In this document: piece by piece, positions 20,648 through 31,303 of the stretch
Layout of the letters: every line of letters begins with the position of its first letter
Numbering within the stretch: position 1 is the stretch's first letter
Origin: Patescibacteria group bacterium UBA924
GTDB lineage: Bacteria > Patescibacteriota > Microgenomatia > UBA1400 > PJMF01
NCBI GenBank assembly: GCA_002293725.1
Contig: DBDU01000023.1
Location: 2,700-66,699, forward strand
Length of the DNA: 64,000 bases
Direction: 5' to 3'
Notes under the pieces: model-generated
What the model saw: the letters and a program-made list of their open reading frames with translations, nothing else
Databases searched by the model: none
Told to the model about the DNA's origin: nothing
Position numbers and translations under genes: made by a program

Positions 20648-21196
20648 TTAGTAACTTCTGACATTCACCGTGGTGGTGAAGTTTTCTGAGCCTTGGTCTT
20701 GGAAGAACTGACCACTGCTGGTGGCATAGCTGAGCGTAAACCCAATTTGAATATAGGTTCCGGTATTCACTGCAGCTTGTTGGCAGTTAAAGCTGAGGTT
20801 TGTGGCTATTGTCGGTCCACCAGTTAAGTAGCGGGTAATGCCGGTTTGGACCGATTCTGAGGCAATCTGGCCATTGGAAAGGTACAGACGAGTCACATTA
20901 TTATCAACTGACCGGAAAACAATTTGGTTCATCCCTGGAGTGCAGGTTGACTCGCCAGGGTTGAGGGGCTCCAACTGAACGGCATTTCGCAACAGAAACT
21001 CAATCTGACTTAAAGCATAGTCGCCATTATCTTTTAACTCTGAGACGAAGTTCTTTTTGCTATCACTGCGTAAAGTAGTAAAGAATAAGCCTGAAGCAGC
21101 TGCCACGAGCATCACGCTTAATCCGATAGCCACCAAAAGCTCAATCAGTGTGAAGCCACGTCTTCCAACAGGAGTCTTTAATTGGTTTCTTGCCAT
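20648..21196 (-). CDS. PilW/GspJ-like minor pilin.
   Basis: GRRG|FTLIELLVAIGLSVML prepilin signal. PulJ/PilW-like body. Its start overlaps the stop of the upstream adhesin gene by 19 nt. Confidence 0.75.
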   Translation of the reverse strand: MARNQLKTPVGRRGFTLIELLVAIGLSVMLVAAASGLFFTTLRSDSKKNFVSELKDNGDYALSQIEFLLRNAVQLEPLNPGESTCTPGMNQIVFRSVDNNVTRLYLSNGQIASESVQTGITRYLTGGPTIATNLSFNCQQAAVNTGTYIQIGFTLSYATSSGQFFQDQGSENFTTTVNVRSY

Positions 21197-23904
21197 GAGT
21201 AGATTGGCCGAGTCATCCGCTCTGGAACATTCTTGACGAAGTCTGGTCTGAAGATGAACAGCTCGGTCGGATAGTTATCATTGGTGAATGGATCGTCATA
21301 CTCTCTACCCAGGGTCACACTGGTCCAGCCGACGAAGGTACCTGAACCGACGAACTTCAGATCTCCACCACCTAGGCCTCCTTCGATGATAATGCGATCG
21401 GCAATATAGACACCGGAGACATTTGGAGTCATATCGGTAGCAATAGAGTTTCCAACTGTGTTCTCTACCGTCACGTTTCCGCTGACGATGAAGGCGAGGA
21501 AGCCACCTTCATCAACAGTGATGGTGTTCTCGATATTCAAGTTACCATTCACAAAGATGACTAAGCTCTCACCGCTGGCGACGGTCCACGGAGTATTGAT
21601 CGTGATGTTCCCAGCACCGTAGTAGGAACGACCGTTGGTTGGAGCCGTGGTTGGTTTAATGCCATTGAAGTCTGAAGCCGGTGAAGAACCCATACTGTAC
21701 AAGTTGTAGAAGTATTGGTAGTTCTCACGAGGACCGTTGTAGACAGAGCCAATCACGTGTCCCTGATTCACTTCTTCACGAAGTCGACTGTAACGTGCGA
21801 CTGGATCTGGGTCAGTATCAATGTCACCACCACCAGTAATGGCGATACCACTACTCTCACTCGCATCTAGAGAGTTGCGGTAAGAGAAGTTTGGCAGACA
21901 GCTTGGTCCCACACAGGTGTCAGGAATTAAGGAGACTAGTGCATTTCCAGTGGTGGTACCGGCGTAGACGAGACCATTCTGGGTCTGCCACCATGGTTGA
22001 GCCACGTTAGCGATGAAGAAGTTAATTCCTGATTCTGGGATGTTCTGACCTGAGTAGGTACAGCCAAATGGACAGGTACATCTCCAAGTTGAAGCATCTG
22101 GGTTAAGCTGGACGCCAATGTTGTTGTAGTTCAAGACGTTATTAATGACGTAACTGTCACCGGTAATATTCCCGCCTGCTGAACCACCACTCTGCCAAGT
22201 AGCGCCTACCGTTGAACCTACACCTGGATTTTGACCAGTTGGACTACCACTTATCTCACAGAGGCCAGTAGCCAGGTTGAGTGCAGCATTGAAGTCTTGA
22301 TCAAGGTAGATATTGCCGCTGATAGGACCAACTAAGGTAAACGTACCGTTTGTCCAGGCCGCAACACCATCACTGTAGTATGGAGTGAGCTCATTCCAGC
22401 CTACCCAACTGGTACTACTCGTCGTCACAATACGGATGTAACGGACGTTCGCTACTGGAGATGAGAAGGTCACATTCAGGACATCACCAGTCGTAATAAA
22501 TTGGGTGATCGAGTCAACTAATGTCGTTGGATTAGGTGAGCTGCCAGCGTAAATTTGATAGGTGGCATTCCCATTCGGAGAGTGGTTAGTTGCCATCCGA
22601 ATGCCAGAAATGGTACGTGTTCCTTTTAGGTCCAACTCAATCCAGTGTGTGGGGAAGCCGCCGGCGTTCCAGGCCGTTGCATCGCTGCCGTTAACAGCAT
22701 TGGCTGCGACCATGTTGTAAGGAGCGCCCTCTGAGGTGAGCCACTCATCACTGGCTGTTGCCGTTAAGTACGTTACAGCATTACAGGTAGTGTTGTTAGG
22801 GCGAACTCTCCAACTGTAGTTTGGAACACCTTGAGGAGCGGTGAAGGTATACGAAGTCGTAGTTAAACCCGTAGCACAGAACGTGTTTGCCGCCGTACAT
22901 TCCTGACCTGGGGTTGTTCCAGTTGGATACACTTGAATGTCATACTCATCAGCTCTGGCAGAAGAGCTCCAGTTCAAAGTGATAGAACGATTCGAAGGAA
23001 GTTGCAGGTTGCCACTTTGAGGATTTAAGGTAATCACACCTGGAGTTCCTAGTTCAGTATTCGAGCAAGTACCACAGGCAGTGGCTTGACCACAAGCGAC
23101 TCCACAAGCACAACCTAAAGTACAGGTGTCACAGGCTTCGTACTCTACTCCGCCAGATACACAACTATTGGTACGACTTCGGGAACCAGCTCCACATGAG
23201 GCGGAACAGGCGCTCCATGCACCGACGCTACAAGGACACTCTTGAGTATTACAGCTTTCGGTTTGAGTGTTGCCACAGTTGTCAGTACGGCTGCGGGTAC
23301 CACCACCACAAGCTGCAGAACAATTGCTCCAACCGCCCCAGTTACACACAACAGGTGATGGAGGAGGTTGGCCAGGGCTTGGTGTAGGAACTGGACAGGC
23401 CTGGGTATTACAGGTTTCGGTCTGAACATTGCCGTTACAGCTGTTTACGCGACTACGGGTACCACCACCACAAGCGACCGAACAAGCTCCCCAGTTACCC
23501 CAACCACAAGTGCCGCCACCCCCACAAGTTGGCCAGTAGGTATCAGTACAGGTGGTTGTACAACCCTGGTTTTGGATATTACATTGGCAGACACCTCCAC
23601 CACAAGAAGCACCAATGTTACCCCCATTTGAACCCCACGTTCCGCTGGAGTTTCCAGTACAGAGGCGATTGTAGTCTCCGTCACTGCAACCACAATTTCT
23701 ATATTGGGTATTATTCCCCTCACAAATAGTATTACCGATATAACAAGGTATTCCACCATTGCAGGTTGTCCCACCTGGATCACAGTATGCAGGGTAGTTA
23801 CAGGCAGCTTGAGCACTTTCAAAACGAGCTACAGTAAGAAAGCTTAAGACGGTGAGAATGGCACACAGAATAAGCGTTCGTCTGTTCATGTTATTGACAT
23901 CCAA
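21178..23904 (-). CDS. Large secreted Cys-rich adhesin-like protein: signal peptide, three thrombospondin type-1 (TSP1)-like repeats, an FN3-like segment, an F5/8-type-C (discoidin)-like domain and a C-terminal parallel beta-helix-like region. Putative pilus-associated tip adhesin.
   Basis: Signal peptide MNRRTLILCAILTVLSFLTVARFESAQA. Three repeats: WGNWGACSVACGGGTRSRVNSC, CNWGGWSNCSAACGGGTRSRTDNC and VGAWSACSASCGAGSRSRTNSC (aa about 133-256). WNAGGFPTHWIELDLKG...IRM is discoidin-like. The C-terminus has a repetitive (I/V)xVxN pattern. Translationally coupled to the PilW-like gene. Confidence 0.8.
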   Translation of the reverse strand: MDVNNMNRRTLILCAILTVLSFLTVARFESAQAACNYPAYCDPGGTTCNGGIPCYIGNTICEGNNTQYRNCGCSDGDYNRLCTGNSSGTWGSNGGNIGASCGGGVCQCNIQNQGCTTTCTDTYWPTCGGGGTCGWGNWGACSVACGGGTRSRVNSCNGNVQTETCNTQACPVPTPSPGQPPPSPVVCNWGGWSNCSAACGGGTRSRTDNCGNTQTESCNTQECPCSVGAWSACSASCGAGSRSRTNSCVSGGVEYEACDTCTLGCACGVACGQATACGTCSNTELGTPGVITLNPQSGNLQLPSNRSITLNWSSSARADEYDIQVYPTGTTPGQECTAANTFCATGLTTTSYTFTAPQGVPNYSWRVRPNNTTCNAVTYLTATASDEWLTSEGAPYNMVAANAVNGSDATAWNAGGFPTHWIELDLKGTRTISGIRMATNHSPNGNATYQIYAGSSPNPTTLVDSITQFITTGDVLNVTFSSPVANVRYIRIVTTSSTSWVGWNELTPYYSDGVAAWTNGTFTLVGPISGNIYLDQDFNAALNLATGLCEISGSPTGQNPGVGSTVGATWQSGGSAGGNITGDSYVINNVLNYNNIGVQLNPDASTWRCTCPFGCTYSGQNIPESGINFFIANVAQPWWQTQNGLVYAGTTTGNALVSLIPDTCVGPSCLPNFSYRNSLDASESSGIAITGGGDIDTDPDPVARYSRLREEVNQGHVIGSVYNGPRENYQYFYNLYSMGSSPASDFNGIKPTTAPTNGRSYYGAGNITINTPWTVASGESLVIFVNGNLNIENTITVDEGGFLAFIVSGNVTVENTVGNSIATDMTPNVSGVYIADRIIIEGGLGGGDLKFVGSGTFVGWTSVTLGREYDDPFTNDNYPTELFIFRPDFVKNVPERMTRPIYSWQETN

Positions 23905-25913: not shown

Positions 25914-28900
25914 ATGGTGCAACAGCTTGAATCCTCGCCAGTCCGCCCCTTGGAACGGGTTGTCCCCTCTTCTCAAGAAAAAGAGTCGTCGCAGCTAGAT
26001 ATCGAGATTGAACAGTGCCAAGAACAGTTTGTGCAAAGTGTGGAGTGGTACCAGCAGGTTCTGGCCGGAAAAAAGCTCCAAGAGACGGTCCCGCAGTTGA
26101 CCAGTGATTTACTCAAGAATGAAGCTGGAAATCCTCCCTTAGAAGTAGCTACAGAGTTTTTTGCTTTAGTCAGCACTGTCGAAAGTATTTACACCGGACG
26201 CCACCGACCCAACTGGGAACAAGCTGAAGCGGCGCTGCACATTATCTTTCCCTACTCTCCAACCGAAGTTCAACGCATCTTAATGGCTCCTGGTGAAGGG
26301 AAAACTTTTACCATTGCCTTAGCGGCACTCTGGAAAGCTCGTCATGGAGAGATGGTGACGATCCATACCGATAAAAAAGCAAATGTGGAACAGAGCTATC
26401 AGACCACACGTCATTTATACGACCTCTTTGAAGTCACCAGCGATACGGTTCGTACCACGGAAGACTTGGGCCCTGAGTACGTTGCTTACCTCAACTCTGA
26501 GCTCACCCAAGTACGTTACGGCGTTTGGAGTCAGTTTATTCATGAGTACTTGTTGCGGCAAGAAACGATCTTCCAAGGTGAAGCCGCGTTGCGAGGAGAT
26601 TTACGAGCACAGCGTGAAGGAAAAGTTCGAGTTGGCAATCGTCAGTTGCTAGATCAACAGCTCGCCCACCAAAGAAAGTACCTCAAACCAGATGCCGTGA
26701 TTAGTGATGAAGGAGATGTCTCTGTTGATCTGGAAACAAGTCCGGTGATTTTATCGGAACCAAATGGCGAGGGCTTTACTCCAGTTGAGCAAGCTGAGCT
26801 CGAGTTGGCTTGGCAGATGTTTGAGCACCAAGATCCTGCTGCTCTGCAGCGAATGGCTGAAGCCACTGGTTTTGATCTAGCAGATGTACGAGCAGGATAT
26901 GAAGTTACTCTTGAAGTCACGGTTGAAGGTATGGAAGCCGATCAAGTAACGTATGCGGTGAACAAAAATAGAGTTATCTTTGCTCCCGAAAAGATCTTTT
27001 TCGCCTCTGTCTTCGAGATGAGTGCGACGCCTAAAGACGTGGCGACCCTGTTTAGATTAGTACAGCTTCAATATCAGGAAGGCAGTCGTTCGGCTTTACC
27101 ATTTCCGGCCGAATCAATGCAAAAAATCGTAGAGCTTGCTTTAGCTGCGGGAGAAGGGTTGGATGCACGTTTCGATTGGCAAGAAGTAGCTGAAGTGCTT
27201 CCCCCACTCCAGCGGCAGGACCTTCGTCACTTTTTCCGTCTTTCTCACCCTCTTTTTGACTACCGCCGAACGTTAATGGAACACCCGCGTATTCAAGCTT
27301 TGATTAGCACTGATGGTGAGCTATCTCCAGCCAATTGGCAGATGTTAGAGGCTGAGTTGGGTGACTCATTTGAAATGTTAAAACAACGCGTTACTTTCTC
27401 GCGGCTGATGGATGTAGTTCAAGAAGTGTGTGATCCCATTTTTACTCGCCATAACCACGATGTGATGGAAGTGCGCGATATGTTGAAAGAAGGGAATGAC
27501 TATAAACTGACCGAGCAAGATGGTGAGTCAACAGTTGTGGTTTTGGGACAAGACCGACAGCCCCAAGTCGGGAGACAGTTTCAGGGAAATACCCAAGCGT
27601 TCATTCACTTGAAACACGGCTTATCTCTGCCGGCAACGGAAAAAACAGTTGGGCAGATCATGCCAATTACTTGGTACCACCAGCGAGTGCGAAACGGAAC
27701 CGAGGTAACATCAATTAGCGGAACACAAGAAGATCCAGACTTTGTCGTAGAAACTACCGGCACATCCAAAGTACGAGAGCTGCAAACGCGAGTGTTGGAA
27801 AATCAGGCCCAAAAGCTCCGTGCGATTATGGAGTATGTCAAAGGGCGGGCTGACGTTCCTATTTTATTGTGTGCGCAGGATCGAACAGAGTGGGAAGAAC
27901 TTAAGAATGGGCTAGCAGAGCTCTCAAACCGCGAGTTGATCTTACTTGATGCTGATCATGCTGAAGACTCATATACCTTAGTTCCCCAACTAGCTCGCGG
28001 CAAGATCCTGCTTTTACAGATGACTTCTCGGGGCTTGGACTTTGGCCACATGATCGGTGAGGGTGAGCACTCTTTCCAAGATGGAGTGATTGTAGGAGCT
28101 GCTCCCCTTTTGGATGTCCACCAGTCCGCTCAGATGAAAGGCCGCCTGGGAAATAAACGTCCCAGCGGTGAGGTGGTGATCTTCACTTCACTTGATGACG
28201 AAGTGGCACAGCAGTACTACAACATTGCCAGTGGTTTGAGTGAGAAGCGTCATAAACAGATGGAAAATCTGGAACTGGACTATGACGAAGTGCTTTCGCT
28301 GGATCGTTACAAATTGATGGGTTTGGGTTGGCCAGAAACATTTGCTGAGGCTATGACTCAGTTAGATAGCTGGCAGGAAGCTGCAGCTCGGGCAGCTGAG
28401 GATGGTGAACAGCTGTCAATGCCAACGTGGATGCAGGTTCTAGTCAACGATCCCGGCATCTCTGCTGAGATGAGGCCGACGGCTAACGCCTTACGTTTTC
28501 GCTTTCGCAGCTTATTGAAAAAGTATCAGGCTCTCCGAGAGGGACACGCCTATGTGATTGAGCGCCAACAACACAATAACTTGGTCCAAACTTACCTCGA
28601 TCGACGTGAACAAATGAGTACGGATGTGGTAGTGCAAGCGCTGTGGAAGGCGATCATGACTCCTACCACCGAGACAAAGTTAGGAAAAGCGGTTCTTCCC
28701 CTGACGTACGAAGAACGCAAGGGAATTGTGGAAGCCATTTTTGAAGATGCCAATATCCTCTACTCGCTGTCTGTAACTAAAGTCAAAGCAGATCAACAGG
28801 AATCACCTCAACATCGGGAGATGAGAAGGATGGCCCAGTTCATGCAAGACATGGAAGAGCGAATCTTGGACTGGATTGAGATGGCAGACTTAGAACGACA

Positions 28901-29195
28901 GTATGCCGAACTTTCTGCTCAGCCGAAGTATGAGATTCCGGAAAATCTTGACCAACTACCAGCATGGATGGATGAACACTTCCCGGTTGAAAGGAAAAAA
29001 CCTCTCCAACGATTGATGAGTTCTCTGGCTCAGTTTGCCTTTTTGGGACTTCAAATGGAAGCACAAAGTCGTGGTCTCCCCTTACCGCCGATTGAAGAAA
29101 CGAACACACACGCTGAAGATCTTGTACTCACCCAACTACGTTCACTGGCCGAGAAGGTCCGTCGAGTTCAGGTTAAATACGAAGGAAAGCTATAA
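25914..29195 (+). CDS. Highly divergent SecA-like DEAD-motor ATPase (SecA/SecA2-like architecture: NBD1, insert, NBD2, helical C-terminal region).
   Basis: PTEVQRILMAPGEGKTFTIALAALWKARHGEMVTIHTD matches [50 protein letters not shown] of E. coli SecA. Walker B DAVISDEGD matches ALVDEVDS. NBD2 has QMTSRGLDFG (TNMAGRGTDI) and QMKGRLGNKRPSGEVVIFTSLDD ([23 protein letters not shown]). 1093 aa. Confidence 0.75.
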   Translation: MVQQLESSPVRPLERVVPSSQEKESSQLDIEIEQCQEQFVQSVEWYQQVLAGKKLQETVPQLTSDLLKNEAGNPPLEVATEFFALVSTVESIYTGRHRPNWEQAEAALHIIFPYSPTEVQRILMAPGEGKTFTIALAALWKARHGEMVTIHTDKKANVEQSYQTTRHLYDLFEVTSDTVRTTEDLGPEYVAYLNSELTQVRYGVWSQFIHEYLLRQETIFQGEAALRGDLRAQREGKVRVGNRQLLDQQLAHQRKYLKPDAVISDEGDVSVDLETSPVILSEPNGEGFTPVEQAELELAWQMFEHQDPAALQRMAEATGFDLADVRAGYEVTLEVTVEGMEADQVTYAVNKNRVIFAPEKIFFASVFEMSATPKDVATLFRLVQLQYQEGSRSALPFPAESMQKIVELALAAGEGLDARFDWQEVAEVLPPLQRQDLRHFFRLSHPLFDYRRTLMEHPRIQALISTDGELSPANWQMLEAELGDSFEMLKQRVTFSRLMDVVQEVCDPIFTRHNHDVMEVRDMLKEGNDYKLTEQDGESTVVVLGQDRQPQVGRQFQGNTQAFIHLKHGLSLPATEKTVGQIMPITWYHQRVRNGTEVTSISGTQEDPDFVVETTGTSKVRELQTRVLENQAQKLRAIMEYVKGRADVPILLCAQDRTEWEELKNGLAELSNRELILLDADHAEDSYTLVPQLARGKILLLQMTSRGLDFGHMIGEGEHSFQDGVIVGAAPLLDVHQSAQMKGRLGNKRPSGEVVIFTSLDDEVAQQYYNIASGLSEKRHKQMENLELDYDEVLSLDRYKLMGLGWPETFAEAMTQLDSWQEAAARAAEDGEQLSMPTWMQVLVNDPGISAEMRPTANALRFRFRSLLKKYQALREGHAYVIERQQHNNLVQTYLDRREQMSTDVVVQALWKAIMTPTTETKLGKAVLPLTYEERKGIVEAIFEDANILYSLSVTKVKADQQESPQHREMRRMAQFMQDMEERILDWIEMADLERQYAELSAQPKYEIPENLDQLPAWMDEHFPVERKKPLQRLMSSLAQFAFLGLQMEAQSRGLPLPPIEETNTHAEDLVLTQLRSLAEKVRRVQVKYEGKL

Positions 29196-29263
29196 CTTTG
29201 CTGAGACTATTCTGAGATGTACTGTTCAGGATTGATCTTGCAAGATATAATCCCCTTTTTAAG

Positions 29264-29857
29264 ATGAGATTCTTCTTTAGTGCGTCGGTCCACGGCAAAC
29301 GTCTTTTTGAGCCTAACTACAAGTTAATTGCTCAAGAAGTCAAGCGGCTGGGACACGAAATTGACGCTACTACCGTGCTCAATCAGGATCCAAAAGAAAT
29401 GGATACTTGGAACGAGCAGACTTCCTTAGATTTTCATAAAAAAGTGATGAACGGCATGAAGAAAGCCGACGGTTTGTTAATTGAAGCATCACACGCGAGC
29501 ATTGGTGTGGGCTTCAACTTGGCGTCTGCTGTCCAGCTAGGTAAGCCCGTGATCATTTTTTTTTCCGGCAAAGAAGAGCCACACTTGTTTCGCACTTTAG
29601 AGAAAATTAATGACAAGTTTCAAGTTGTACGTTACACCACCATCGAACAGCTCCGCAAAGAAATTCCGCCGGCCTTGGCATTTGCAACTGAAAACCAAGA
29701 TACTCGTTTCAACTTTTTTATCTCCCCCGAACACGCCAAGTACCTGGACTGGATTGCCCAGACCTACAAGATGTCCCGGTCAGTCTATTTGCGTCGTTTG
29801 ATTAATAAAGAAATGGACAAAATGGCTGAAGAGTTCAGCATGAGTGACTTAATTTAA
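29264..29857 (+). CDS. Nucleoside 2-deoxyribosyltransferase-like (NDT/TIR-like Rossmann) domain fused to a C-terminal ribbon-helix-helix DNA-binding module (paralog 1).
   Basis: The N-terminal about 140 aa resemble the NDT-fold (short N-terminal strand, hydrophobic core, GKPVIIFF). C-terminal TRFNFFISPEHAKYLDWIAQTYKMSRSVYLRRLINKEM matches a CopG/Arc-type RHH (beta-strand then two helices, RSxxIRxLI). Confidence 0.55.
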   Translation: MRFFFSASVHGKRLFEPNYKLIAQEVKRLGHEIDATTVLNQDPKEMDTWNEQTSLDFHKKVMNGMKKADGLLIEASHASIGVGFNLASAVQLGKPVIIFFSGKEEPHLFRTLEKINDKFQVVRYTTIEQLRKEIPPALAFATENQDTRFNFFISPEHAKYLDWIAQTYKMSRSVYLRRLINKEMDKMAEEFSMSDLI

Positions 29858-29863
29858 GGTTCT

Positions 29864-30436
29864 ATGCTTATCTATTTTTGCGCTACCACTTCCCAATCTC
29901 AGACTTACCAACAGAGTTATCTAGAAATTATTCAAACGATTGAAAAGCTTGGTCATAAAGTTGTCTACGAACCAACCGAAGAAAATACGCGTCAGCAACA
30001 ACAGACGATGAGTCCTACAGAGCGGCAAGCGTACTATCGCAAGTTTCTCCAACATATCAATAAATGTGACATGGTTATTGCGGAAGTTTCTTATCCGTCT
30101 TCGATTAACATTGGCTATCGCATCTCAATTGCTTTAGAGAAAAACAAACCGGTCTTGGCTCTGCATGCTAAAGACAAAGCCTCTCCCTTTTTAGATGGAA
30201 ATATCTCTGATCGTTTTCTGTACGAAGAGTACTCTCCTTCTACTTTGAAAAAGACGATTGAGCGAGCGCTGAACTTTGCCGAACAACACACCGATGCGCG
30301 TTTTAACTTTTTTATCTCACCTCGTCACATCAACTTCCTGGACTTTATCTCGCGTAAACGGAAGATTCCAAAGTCCGTTTACCTACGAGAACTGATTGAG
30401 CGCGATAAGTTGGCAAATCACGATTACAACGAGTAA
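29864..30436 (+). CDS. NDT-like domain plus C-terminal RHH module (paralog 2).
   Basis: Starts 7 nt after paralog 1. Conserved C-terminal ARFNFFISPRHINFLDFI...KSVYLRELIERD. Same domain order. Confidence 0.55.
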   Translation: MLIYFCATTSQSQTYQQSYLEIIQTIEKLGHKVVYEPTEENTRQQQQTMSPTERQAYYRKFLQHINKCDMVIAEVSYPSSINIGYRISIALEKNKPVLALHAKDKASPFLDGNISDRFLYEEYSPSTLKKTIERALNFAEQHTDARFNFFISPRHINFLDFISRKRKIPKSVYLRELIERDKLANHDYNE

Positions 30437-30490
30437 TTGCATTTCCTCACAACTTTCTTCTATACTGTGTGCATCTACCTCTGAGTACTT

Positions 30491-31303
30491 GTGTCTTCGG
30501 AGGACACAGCAATGCAACTCATGCAACATACTCGTTCACAGTCTGGTCAAGTCGGCATCATTATTATCTTGATTATGGTGGTGTTGCTGACCTTCGGTCT
30601 CTCAATTGCGTCACGCTCTACTCGGGAAGTTGCGCTGTCTCAACAAGAAGAAGAGTCCAACCGTGTCTTTAACGCCGCTGAAGCCGGTGTTGAGCGTGCT
30701 TTAGCAACTGACCTGGACTTTGAAGGTGAGGAGTTTGATTCAGAAGGGACGATTATTCCTGGAACGGACTCCAGTTTAGACTACAACATCCGTAAAAATC
30801 GTATTCTTGAAACGCGCTTAATTGAAGGTACGACTGCCATGGTGCAGATGCAAGATATTGATAACGCGCTACCGACAAATGTCTACATCGATTGGTCTCG
30901 AGAAACAGACTGTGGGACAGGTAAAGGACCAGCCAGCTTGATCGTCTCAATTTACAACACCGCAGTGAGTACTGGCTCAGCCGTTCGTCACTATGCCTAT
31001 GCAGCCTGTGATCGCAATGATGATATTGCTGTGGGCGGAAATGGGTCTAATGGTTACTTTAAAAGAGCAACTATCGCCACTACGCCAGGTGATGAGTTTA
31101 TGCGAGTCAAGACGGTCTACAATGACACCTTCTTGCGGGTAAGTGCATCAAGTACTTTACCCACGCAAGCGTATGATATTCGCTCCGAAGCAACCAGTAA
31201 CTTGGGAAATGAGGCCCGTACCGTTGAAGTGAAACGCACACTCTCTGTCGCTCCATCAGTGATGGACTTTGCACTCTTCAGTGGTACCTCATTAACGAAG
31301 TAA
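30491..31303 (+). CDS. PilX-like type IV pilus assembly protein (PilX_N domain).
   Basis: N-terminal TM segment (VGIIIILIMVVLLTFGLSIA) followed by REVALSQQEEESNRVFNAAEAGVERAL (the PilX_N AFyaAEAG motif). Likely start at Met8 (30512). Confidence 0.6.
   Translation: MSSEDTAMQLMQHTRSQSGQVGIIIILIMVVLLTFGLSIASRSTREVALSQQEEESNRVFNAAEAGVERALATDLDFEGEEFDSEGTIIPGTDSSLDYNIRKNRILETRLIEGTTAMVQMQDIDNALPTNVYIDWSRETDCGTGKGPASLIVSIYNTAVSTGSAVRHYAYAACDRNDDIAVGGNGSNGYFKRATIATTPGDEFMRVKTVYNDTFLRVSASSTLPTQAYDIRSEATSNLGNEARTVEVKRTLSVAPSVMDFALFSGTSLTK

Follow-up and report, generated by a model that had tools for sequence, protein, structure and literature searches.

A tandem pair of DNPH1-fold proteins with C-terminal ribbon-helix-helix domains upstream of a type IV pilus operon in Patescibacteria, candidate nucleotide-responsive regulators

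We analysed a stretch of 64,000 nucleotides from the Patescibacteria group bacterium UBA924 (GenBank assembly GCA_002293725.1, contig DBDU01000023.1, positions 2,700 to 66,699 of the forward strand; hereafter the window), in which two adjacent genes, here called winA and winB, lie directly upstream of a type IV pilus operon. We found that each encodes an N-terminal domain with the fold of DNPH1 and of the nucleoside 2-deoxyribosyltransferases (NDT), followed by a C-terminal domain that is well supported as a ribbon-helix-helix (RHH), and that both have lost catalytic residues of DNPH1. The genes and their domains are located as follows, in positions of the window.

29264..29857, + strand: winA, the first gene; open reading frame with an ATG start, 197 residues, Glu-less protein of DNPH1/NDT fold plus RHH
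29864..30436, + strand: winB, the second gene; open reading frame with an ATG start, 190 residues, paralog with DNPH1/NDT fold plus RHH
29264..29692, + strand: DNPH1/Rcl-like N-terminal domain of winA, residues 1-143, with F5, V60 and N85 replacing Tyr, Asp and Glu (HMMER alignment to rat Rcl, column mapping)
29864..30289, + strand: DNPH1/NDT-like N-terminal domain of winB, residues 1-142, with Tyr kept, Phe at the Asp position and Arg at the Glu position (Rcl alignment, column mapping)
29699..29815, + strand: predicted C-terminal RHH of winA, residues 146-184, with the DTRFNFFIS strand, a helix at 155-168 and a helix from 172 (profile evidence, AlphaFold2 secondary structure)
30293..30409, + strand: predicted C-terminal RHH of winB, residues 144-182, an extended segment followed by helices 153-166 and 170-184 (profile evidence, model)

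Both genes lie in one reading frame, and between the winA stop codon (TAA) and the winB ATG there are 6 nt (29858-29863, GGTTCT). An earlier reading of this DNA from its letters (the sequence-only reading) had given the coordinates and lengths of the pair correctly; its spacing of 7 nt was the coordinate difference. BLASTP aligns the two proteins over 196 columns with 33% of the residues identical (E 2e-31), which identifies them as true paralogs, and the identity is unevenly distributed, being 21% over the first 140 residues and 55% over the last 40. In comparisons with relatives, the nonsynonymous divergence (dN) of winA and winB is 0.08-0.20, the synonymous divergence (dS) is saturated and dN/dS is at most about 0.07, so that both genes are under strong purifying selection. 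Conservation in close relatives was a point on which the sequence-only reading had staked its interpretation, and we find the open reading frames there present, intact, syntenic and strongly constrained, with the gene order kept down to 70% identity. The composition and GC content of the pair are those of the surrounding genome, and the database entries for the exact two proteins read 'hypothetical protein [Patescibacteria group bacterium]'.

Next, we examined the N-terminal domain. Against the Pfam model of nucleoside 2-deoxyribosyltransferase (PF05014; gathering threshold 28.8 bits), winA scores 25.3 bits, just below the threshold, and winB 29.2 bits, just above it, while in phmmer searches of the PDB sequences Rcl/DNPH1 are the sole significant matches (1.2e-7 for winA and 1.6e-5 for winB). 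AlphaFold2 models built on family alignments reach a mean predicted local distance difference test score of 88.4 for winA and 86.3 for winB, with a predicted template modelling (TM) score of about 0.7, and upon searching the PDB with Foldseek the top 50 matches are all DNPH1/Rcl (E from 5e-8, target-normalised TM 0.70-0.86). Models and profile matches together confirm the predicted fold as the flavodoxin-like Rossmannoid fold of DNPH1/NDT, with DNPH1, MilB and NDT as the closest clade, and the NDT-like resemblance proposed in the sequence-only reading is borne out.

The catalytic residues of this fold are known from DNPH1, in which Tyr24, Asp80 and Glu104 (human numbering) form the triad and Glu104 acts as nucleophile. 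The beta1-alpha1 loop of DNPH1 contacts the 5'-phosphate through main-chain NH groups, two serines, Ser98 and, from the partner subunit, Ser128, also hold it, and the active sites receive residues from both subunits (PMC10483697). The human E104Q variant has no activity and retains substrate binding (PMC12751057). We mapped the triad through HMMER and MAFFT alignments, with rat Rcl Y13, D69 and E93 as the equivalents of human Y24, D80 and E104. The catalytic Glu, which the sequence-only reading had singled out as a residue to check, is replaced by Asn in winA (GFN) and by Arg in winB (GYR), and the Asp that serves as general acid/base is gone as well, its position being held by Val in winA and by Phe in winB. 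At the position of the Tyr that is hydrogen-bonded to the nucleophile in DNPH1, winA has Phe and winB has Tyr, so that the Tyr-Asp-Glu of DNPH1 reads F-V-N in winA and Y-F-R in winB. Judged by these positions, neither window copy can be a normal hydrolase. We observe that nearly all of 122 aligned family members have a hydrophobic residue or Thr at the Asp position, that the 22 closest homologs of winA all share its N85, and that the Arg of winB is shared by three loci of close relatives (L001, L081 and L083) and specific to the close relatives of the window, more distant pilX-adjacent paralogs carrying HE or QE at that position. At the level of sequence the 5'-phosphate-binding elements are retained, and both window proteins have the Ser that corresponds to human Ser98 (S79, present in 88% of the family) and the loop Gly (G11, in at least 90%). 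Because the catalytic Glu and Asp are lost in both copies, the N-terminal domains are best described as ligand-binding pseudoenzymes, with binding predicted from sequence, and the absence of the Glu favours a sensor over an enzyme for these two proteins. The strong purifying selection and the invariant N85 argue that winA and winB are maintained pseudoenzymes and not decaying genes.

The C-terminal motif quoted in the sequence-only reading occurs in both proteins, as TRFNFFISPEH...RSVYLRRLI in winA and as ARFNFFISPRH...KSVYLRELI in winB, and the assignment to the CopG/Arc type that it had proposed agrees with several profile comparisons. A profile of the C-terminal 50 residues of the family matches the CopG-family structure 7by2 (E 2e-4), the VapB structure 3h87 (E 6.5e-3) and CopG itself (1b01, E 0.17) in the PDB, the alignment with 1b01 bringing the strand into register (R-F-N-F-F-I-S in the family vs R-L-T-I-T-L-S in CopG) and placing R148, N150 and F152 opposite CopG R4, T6 and T8, that is, at the DNA-facing positions. 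When single members are scanned with Pfam, 12 of 32 match RHH_3 and 9 of 32 match RHH_1 (best RHH_1 E 3.2e-7, reached among divergent members), with weak matches to the HicB-like family HicB_lk_antitox in 3 of 32. Furthermore, winA matches transcriptional repressor/regulator families of PHROG (E 3e-4 and 5.5e-4) and the VapB antitoxin model of NCBIfam (E 0.002). These matches support the C-terminal domain well as a CopG-type RHH. Characterised RHH domains are dimers that insert a two-stranded sheet into the major groove of DNA and bind specific operator sequences.

Upon widening the analysis to homologs, a word-indexed search with winA returned 372 proteins, almost all of 185-200 residues. A hidden Markov model (HMM) search, exhaustive over 1.84 billion cluster representatives at the 50% identity level, returned 290 representatives at E<=1e-30, nearly all about 190 residues long, and 1396 at E<=1e-10. 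Upon scanning a single genome of each species we found 80 loci, all with Patescibacteria-type gene content, and the more finely labelled among them belong to Woese-, Shapiro-, Beckwith-, Collier-, Chisholm- and Pacebacteria, with a few obviously mislabelled metagenome-assembled genomes. The family is unnamed, large, of two domains and specific to Patescibacteria (Microgenomates-group lineages); its members are called 'hypothetical protein' in the databases or carry the over-transferred names 'nucleoside 2-deoxyribosyltransferase' and 'DNPH1'. The sequence-only reading had regarded the architecture as unusual, and we find that within its own lineage it is not rare but defines this large family. 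With regard to labelling, three loci with typical Patescibacteria gene order (L004, L017 and L069) were deposited under the names Bathyarchaeia, Methanoperedens and, for a contig of 1.41 Mb, Vitreimonas sp., and many others are labelled 'uncultured Pseudomonadales', such labels being likely mis-binned or placeholders.

The 80 loci and the window together hold 131 family genes, and 35 of the 81 loci have 2-6 copies, often in tandem, with winA and winB being the only copies in the 64 kb of the window. Across the family, the mean pairwise identity is 57% in the RHH vs 31% in the sensor domain, and R148, F149, N150 and R177 are essentially invariant. The catalytic Glu is present in 78 of the 131 copies (as HE, QE or YE) and absent from 53, and Phe stands at the Tyr position in 22 of the 53 Glu-less copies vs 7 of the 78 Glu-bearing ones (p 2e-5). 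Glu-bearing and Glu-less forms are mixed in 22 of the 35 multi-copy loci, and winA falls within an old Glu-less clade whose members mostly stand first in a pair. The tandem Glu-bearing/Glu-less pairs, taken with the invariant RHH core, make heterodimers possible.

Besides the family proper, we observed a metagenomic sister group (P0125 and P0269-P0273) in which a Glu-bearing NDT-like domain is combined with a segment of about 100 residues resembling an XRE helix-turn-helix (HTH), FGxxLKxxRLxxGxFTLxxL...DPSLLSHWQRGARxPK, placed at the N-terminus, at the C-terminus or between two NDT domains; P0125 and P0273 lie on one 8.4-kb contig. The segment matches Pfam HTH_31 weakly (E 0.003-0.08) and aligns in hhalign with four approximate XRE HTH sequences in the canonical register (E 0.13), and it has no match in a PDB profile search. 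We regard an XRE-type HTH in this group as a weak lead from sequence.

We next turned to the genomic neighbourhood. The flanks are those described in the sequence-only reading, with a protein of 1093 residues matching SecA_DEAD upstream of the pair and a pilX-like gene followed by PilM_2 downstream, and three further features of the window are of relevance here.

25914-29195, upstream of the pair: SecA_DEAD-like protein of 1093 residues, with a weak N-terminal match (E 6e-7), lacking further SecA domains
29246..29251, + strand: putative -10 box TATAAT of winA, 12 nt before the ATG, which implies a very short leader
30437..30466, + strand: promoter-like element of the pilus operon, TTGCAT-N18-TATACT, beginning right after the winB stop

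The order of the SecA_DEAD-like gene (about 1100 residues), the two family genes, pilX and pilM is kept in the window's own clade. Conservation of the SecA-like gene ahead of the pair is confined to the closest clade (L001, L081, L083 and the P0015 locus), and the other contexts of the family have no copy of it; it is not a partner of the family elsewhere. When partitioning the loci by gene order, we recognise four recurrent contexts, in which F denotes a family gene. In 16 loci including the window, F-(x)-F stands directly upstream of pilX-like, pilM, pilN-like and pilO-like genes, an arrangement that persists across identities of 100% to about 35%. The second context is ybeY-dnaX-ybaB-recR, a variable enzyme gene, F, further genes and cysS; the third is an AddA-like helicase-nuclease, in some cases a radical-SAM gene, F and rmlC; and the fourth is a hydrolase, a radical-SAM gene, F and then mur/ddl genes. 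The gene that immediately precedes F, or that separates two F, encodes one of several enzyme types on the same strand, namely a SPASM-type radical-SAM enzyme, a member of one of three SAM-methyltransferase families, a PfkB nucleoside/ribokinase-like, thymidine-kinase-like or one of two P-loop small-molecule kinases, or a CDA-family deaminase. The family subtype correlates with the type of the neighbouring enzyme, for example with QE-type copies accompanying the thymidine kinase and the deaminase. Because the deaminase matches TadA best (E 3e-27) and ComEB far more weakly (5e-5), we name it a CDA-family deaminase only, and the label 'dCMP deaminase' was rejected. A viperin-like reading of the radical-SAM neighbour was likewise rejected, its best NCBIfam matches being of the AhbC/NirJ/MoaA SPASM type with viperin far weaker.

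Two further observations concern neighbouring genes. In the recR context, a protein of about 300 residues (cluster c58) with VPLRGG and ILEvaxxSGxT motifs that recall phosphoribosyltransferases is encoded directly upstream of Glu-less members, at the following positions.

L003:9079-9987: c58 protein
L010:8880-10004: c58 protein
L013:9050-9976: c58 protein
L016:2245-3180: c58 protein

A phosphoribosyltransferase-like reading of this protein is unproven, with UPRT and HPRT reached only at E of about 1.3 in the PDB profile search and Pfam negative. In the window itself, positions 20648-23904 (- strand) hold a pilin-like gene with an N_methyl motif followed by a gene for a protein of 908 residues with matches to F5/8 type C (discoidin) domains and thrombospondin type-1 repeats, a pairing also seen in L083; from these matches the 908-residue protein may be a pilus-associated adhesin.

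Upstream of winA, the block GATATAATCCCCTTTTTAAGATG at the -10 box is kept in the window, L081, L083 and L001, and the sequence further upstream diverges. The arrangement TTGCAT ... TAT(A/G)AT is kept upstream of pilX-like genes in many of the pilus-context loci, and we suggest that the pilus-operon promoter may be a target of winA and winB. We also noticed a tandem CTGAGA-N5-CTGAGA with an 11-nt period (29201-29217), shortly before the -35 region of winA, which occurs in a single exact copy in the window and is kept in L081 and not in L083 or L001; as an operator it was rejected, near-matches being no commoner than in shuffled sequences. In its 5' leader, the pilX-like gene has a conserved hairpin, CCUCUGAG...CUUCGGAGG (30478-30503), predicted to sequester the GGAGG ribosome-binding site, with a stem identical in four relatives, a variable loop and no covariation, and this hairpin suggests that the true start of the gene is the ATG at 30512 and not the GTG at 30491 chosen by the ORF caller. 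Two close relatives have, in place of the short spacer between winB and pilX, inserted DNA of 0.3-1 kb (L081:7181-7483 and L001:4069-5045), in which we noticed a strong hairpin resembling a terminator (CCACC...GGTGGTTTTTTGT) as well as a stretch resembling a tRNA 3' end (GGGTTCGACTCCCGTCACCTCCA); ARAGORN and Rfam found no match in these inserts.

The sequence-only reading had suggested, as one possibility, a nucleotide- or nucleoside-responsive pair of regulators. We find this to be the reading best supported by the two folds and by the catalytic loss, and we infer, with a rough probability of 0.5, that the family consists of dimeric, one-component RHH regulators that respond to nucleotides. 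The proteins would dimerise as A2, B2 or A/B, and a ligand resembling a (deoxy)nucleoside monophosphate would occupy a pocket at the interface of the N-terminal domains. Its occupancy would alter how the RHH pair is seated on the operator and in this way modulate operator binding, and the output would be a tuning of the transcription of the pair's own bicistron, of the adjacent pilX-pilM-N-O type IV pilus operon, or of both. For the other paralogs, the targets may be the adjacent kinase, methyltransferase or radical-SAM genes.

Several observations weigh against such regulators. The presumed DNA-reading residues R148, N150 and F152 are nearly invariant across all paralogs, which would be odd if each paralog controlled a different operon. 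Furthermore, no operator emerged from k-mer enrichment, for which 51 upstream regions of family genes were compared with 690 controls, from the enrichment of inverted and direct dyads near family genes in 78 loci, or from a search for recurrent dyads in the 31 intergenic regions of the window; these searches gave only the coding start (ATGAAAAT) and promoter boxes. The AlphaFold2 monomer models lack the beta-strand of the RHH and have in its place an extended segment of lower confidence ahead of the two helices, the strand being one that needs the dimer. The identity of the ligand is purely an extrapolation from DNPH1. Finally, in the Glu-bearing copies (78 of 131) the Tyr position is mostly held by Tyr or His, and since many paralogs keep Tyr together with Glu, with Phe enriched among the Glu-less ones, part of the family may be enzymatic.

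The last point leads to an alternative that we take seriously and yet consider unlikely, in which the family would consist of bifunctional enzymes comparable to PutA, BirA and NadR, nucleotide N-glycosidases or deoxyribosyl-transferases for the salvage or sanitation of imported nucleotides, with the RHH serving autoregulation, and in which the window copies would be degenerate, non-catalytic subunits pairing with Glu-bearing paralogs encoded elsewhere. The significant co-loss of Tyr and Glu fits these bifunctional enzymes, as do the mixed forms in the multi-copy loci and the thymidine-kinase-like, PfkB nucleoside-kinase-like, P-loop kinase and CDA deaminase neighbours; moreover, the DNPH1 active sites are built from both subunits (PMC10483697) and Patescibacteria rely on imported nucleotides (PMC11665869). 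However, nearly all aligned members, the Glu-bearing ones included, lack the Asp that acts as general acid, both window copies lack the nucleophile with no third copy in the 64 kb, and a catalytic role gives no account of the RHH being conserved more strongly than any other part of the protein. The near-invariance of the presumed DNA-contact residues and the lack of a detectable operator motif would instead fit proteins that handle DNA generically, the RHH binding incoming or damaged DNA and the N-terminal domain gripping a terminal or flipped nucleotide, with a DprA-like logic in pilus-mediated uptake and recombination. Genes for the uptake or recombination of DNA occur in three of the recurrent contexts, those with the type IV pilus operon, with recR and with the AddA-like helicase-nuclease, but dnaX-ybaB-recR is a generic housekeeping cluster with the family gene in a variable slot after it. 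The RHH domains characterised so far are sequence-specific operator binders, nothing here points to non-specific DNA binding, and we know of no precedent for an NDT-fold domain that binds polymer ends; we regard a role in DNA handling as a serious alternative, though quite improbable.

The sequence-only reading had also raised a toxin-antitoxin-like or conflict module, which would here mean an RHH antitoxin-type protein fused to an NDT/TIR/SLOG-like effector or sensor, in toxin-antitoxin or anti-phage function. The weak VapB-type similarity of the RHH (E 0.002 in NCBIfam, 6.5e-3 for 3h87), the HicB-like Pfam matches in 3 of 32 members and the expansion of paralogs are compatible with this, yet PADLOC returned no match for winA, for the SecA-like protein or for the two upstream ORFs and no significant match overall, its sole hit being Cas13-ApeA for winB at E 0.003, and the PHROG matches on the RHH are to repressor families only. 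No cognate toxin gene adjoins the pair, whose neighbours are a paralog, the SecA_DEAD-like protein and pilus genes, and no toxin-type neighbour occurs in any of the conserved contexts. In addition, both tandem genes carry the RHH, the effector residues are gone, the GC content is like that of the surroundings, and the pair shows stable vertical synteny with housekeeping and pilus genes under strongly purifying selection. We consider such a module disfavoured and very improbable, and a family of nucleotide-responsive RHH regulators remains the reading we prefer.

In comparison with known systems, these proteins match DNPH1/Rcl, MilB and NDT (PF05014) best in structure and sequence of the N-terminal domain and keep their phosphate-loop Gly and Ser, but nearly all aligned members lack the Asp of the triad, and the added C-terminal RHH is found on none of the top-ranked solved DNPH1, NDT and MilB chains, which comprise 120-165 residues. 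The C-terminal 45 residues match the CopG-family profiles within the CopG/Arc/MetJ RHH proteins, with R-x-N-x-F in place of the R-x-T-x-T of CopG. NikR and PutA likewise combine an RHH with a ligand-binding or enzyme domain, with the differences that their RHH is N-terminal and ours C-terminal, that the partner here is a DNPH1/NDT fold, and that DNA binding is here a prediction. NrtR combines a Nudix-fold ADP-ribose sensor with a winged HTH, and NrdR an ATP-cone with a zinc ribbon; by analogy only, they share with the predicted regulators the concept of a nucleotide-binding or enzyme-derived domain, often dead, that is joined to a DNA-binding domain near genes of nucleotide metabolism, whereas both of their domains have other folds and there is no sequence relationship. 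HicB antitoxins, in which a degenerate RNase-H-like fold is followed by a C-terminal RHH or HTH, resemble the window proteins in having an inactivated enzyme-like N-terminal domain ahead of a C-terminal RHH, which is consistent with the few weak HicB_lk_antitox matches, but the N-terminal fold is a different one and no HicA-like or other toxin gene is adjacent here. A full-text literature search for an NDT/DNPH1-RHH fusion found no relevant report. Overall, both domains and the general logic are already known, and what is new is their combination, the pseudoenzyme status, the bank of paralogs and the restriction to one lineage.

To our knowledge, Microgenomates-group Patescibacteria have no de novo nucleotide synthesis. 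As a possible but rather doubtful extension, these bacteria would use a bank of up to six DNPH1-fold sensors sharing one nearly invariant RHH head, partly as mixed Glu-bearing/Glu-less dimers, to couple the (deoxy)nucleotide pool to the DNA-uptake/attachment pilus and to nucleotide-converting enzymes, as a lineage-specific master regulon. Gene regulation in Patescibacteria has been described as virtually unknown, and their nucleotides are imported (PMC11665869). The family described here is a concrete candidate for linking nucleotide status to the expression of pilus and salvage genes. If nucleotide-responsive regulation by these proteins holds true, hundreds of proteins now annotated as 'hypothetical' or misannotated as 'nucleoside 2-deoxyribosyltransferase' would receive a name, and the DNPH1/NDT fold would join the enzyme folds recruited as sensor domains of transcription factors, such as the Nudix fold in NrtR and the phosphoribosyltransferase fold in PurR.

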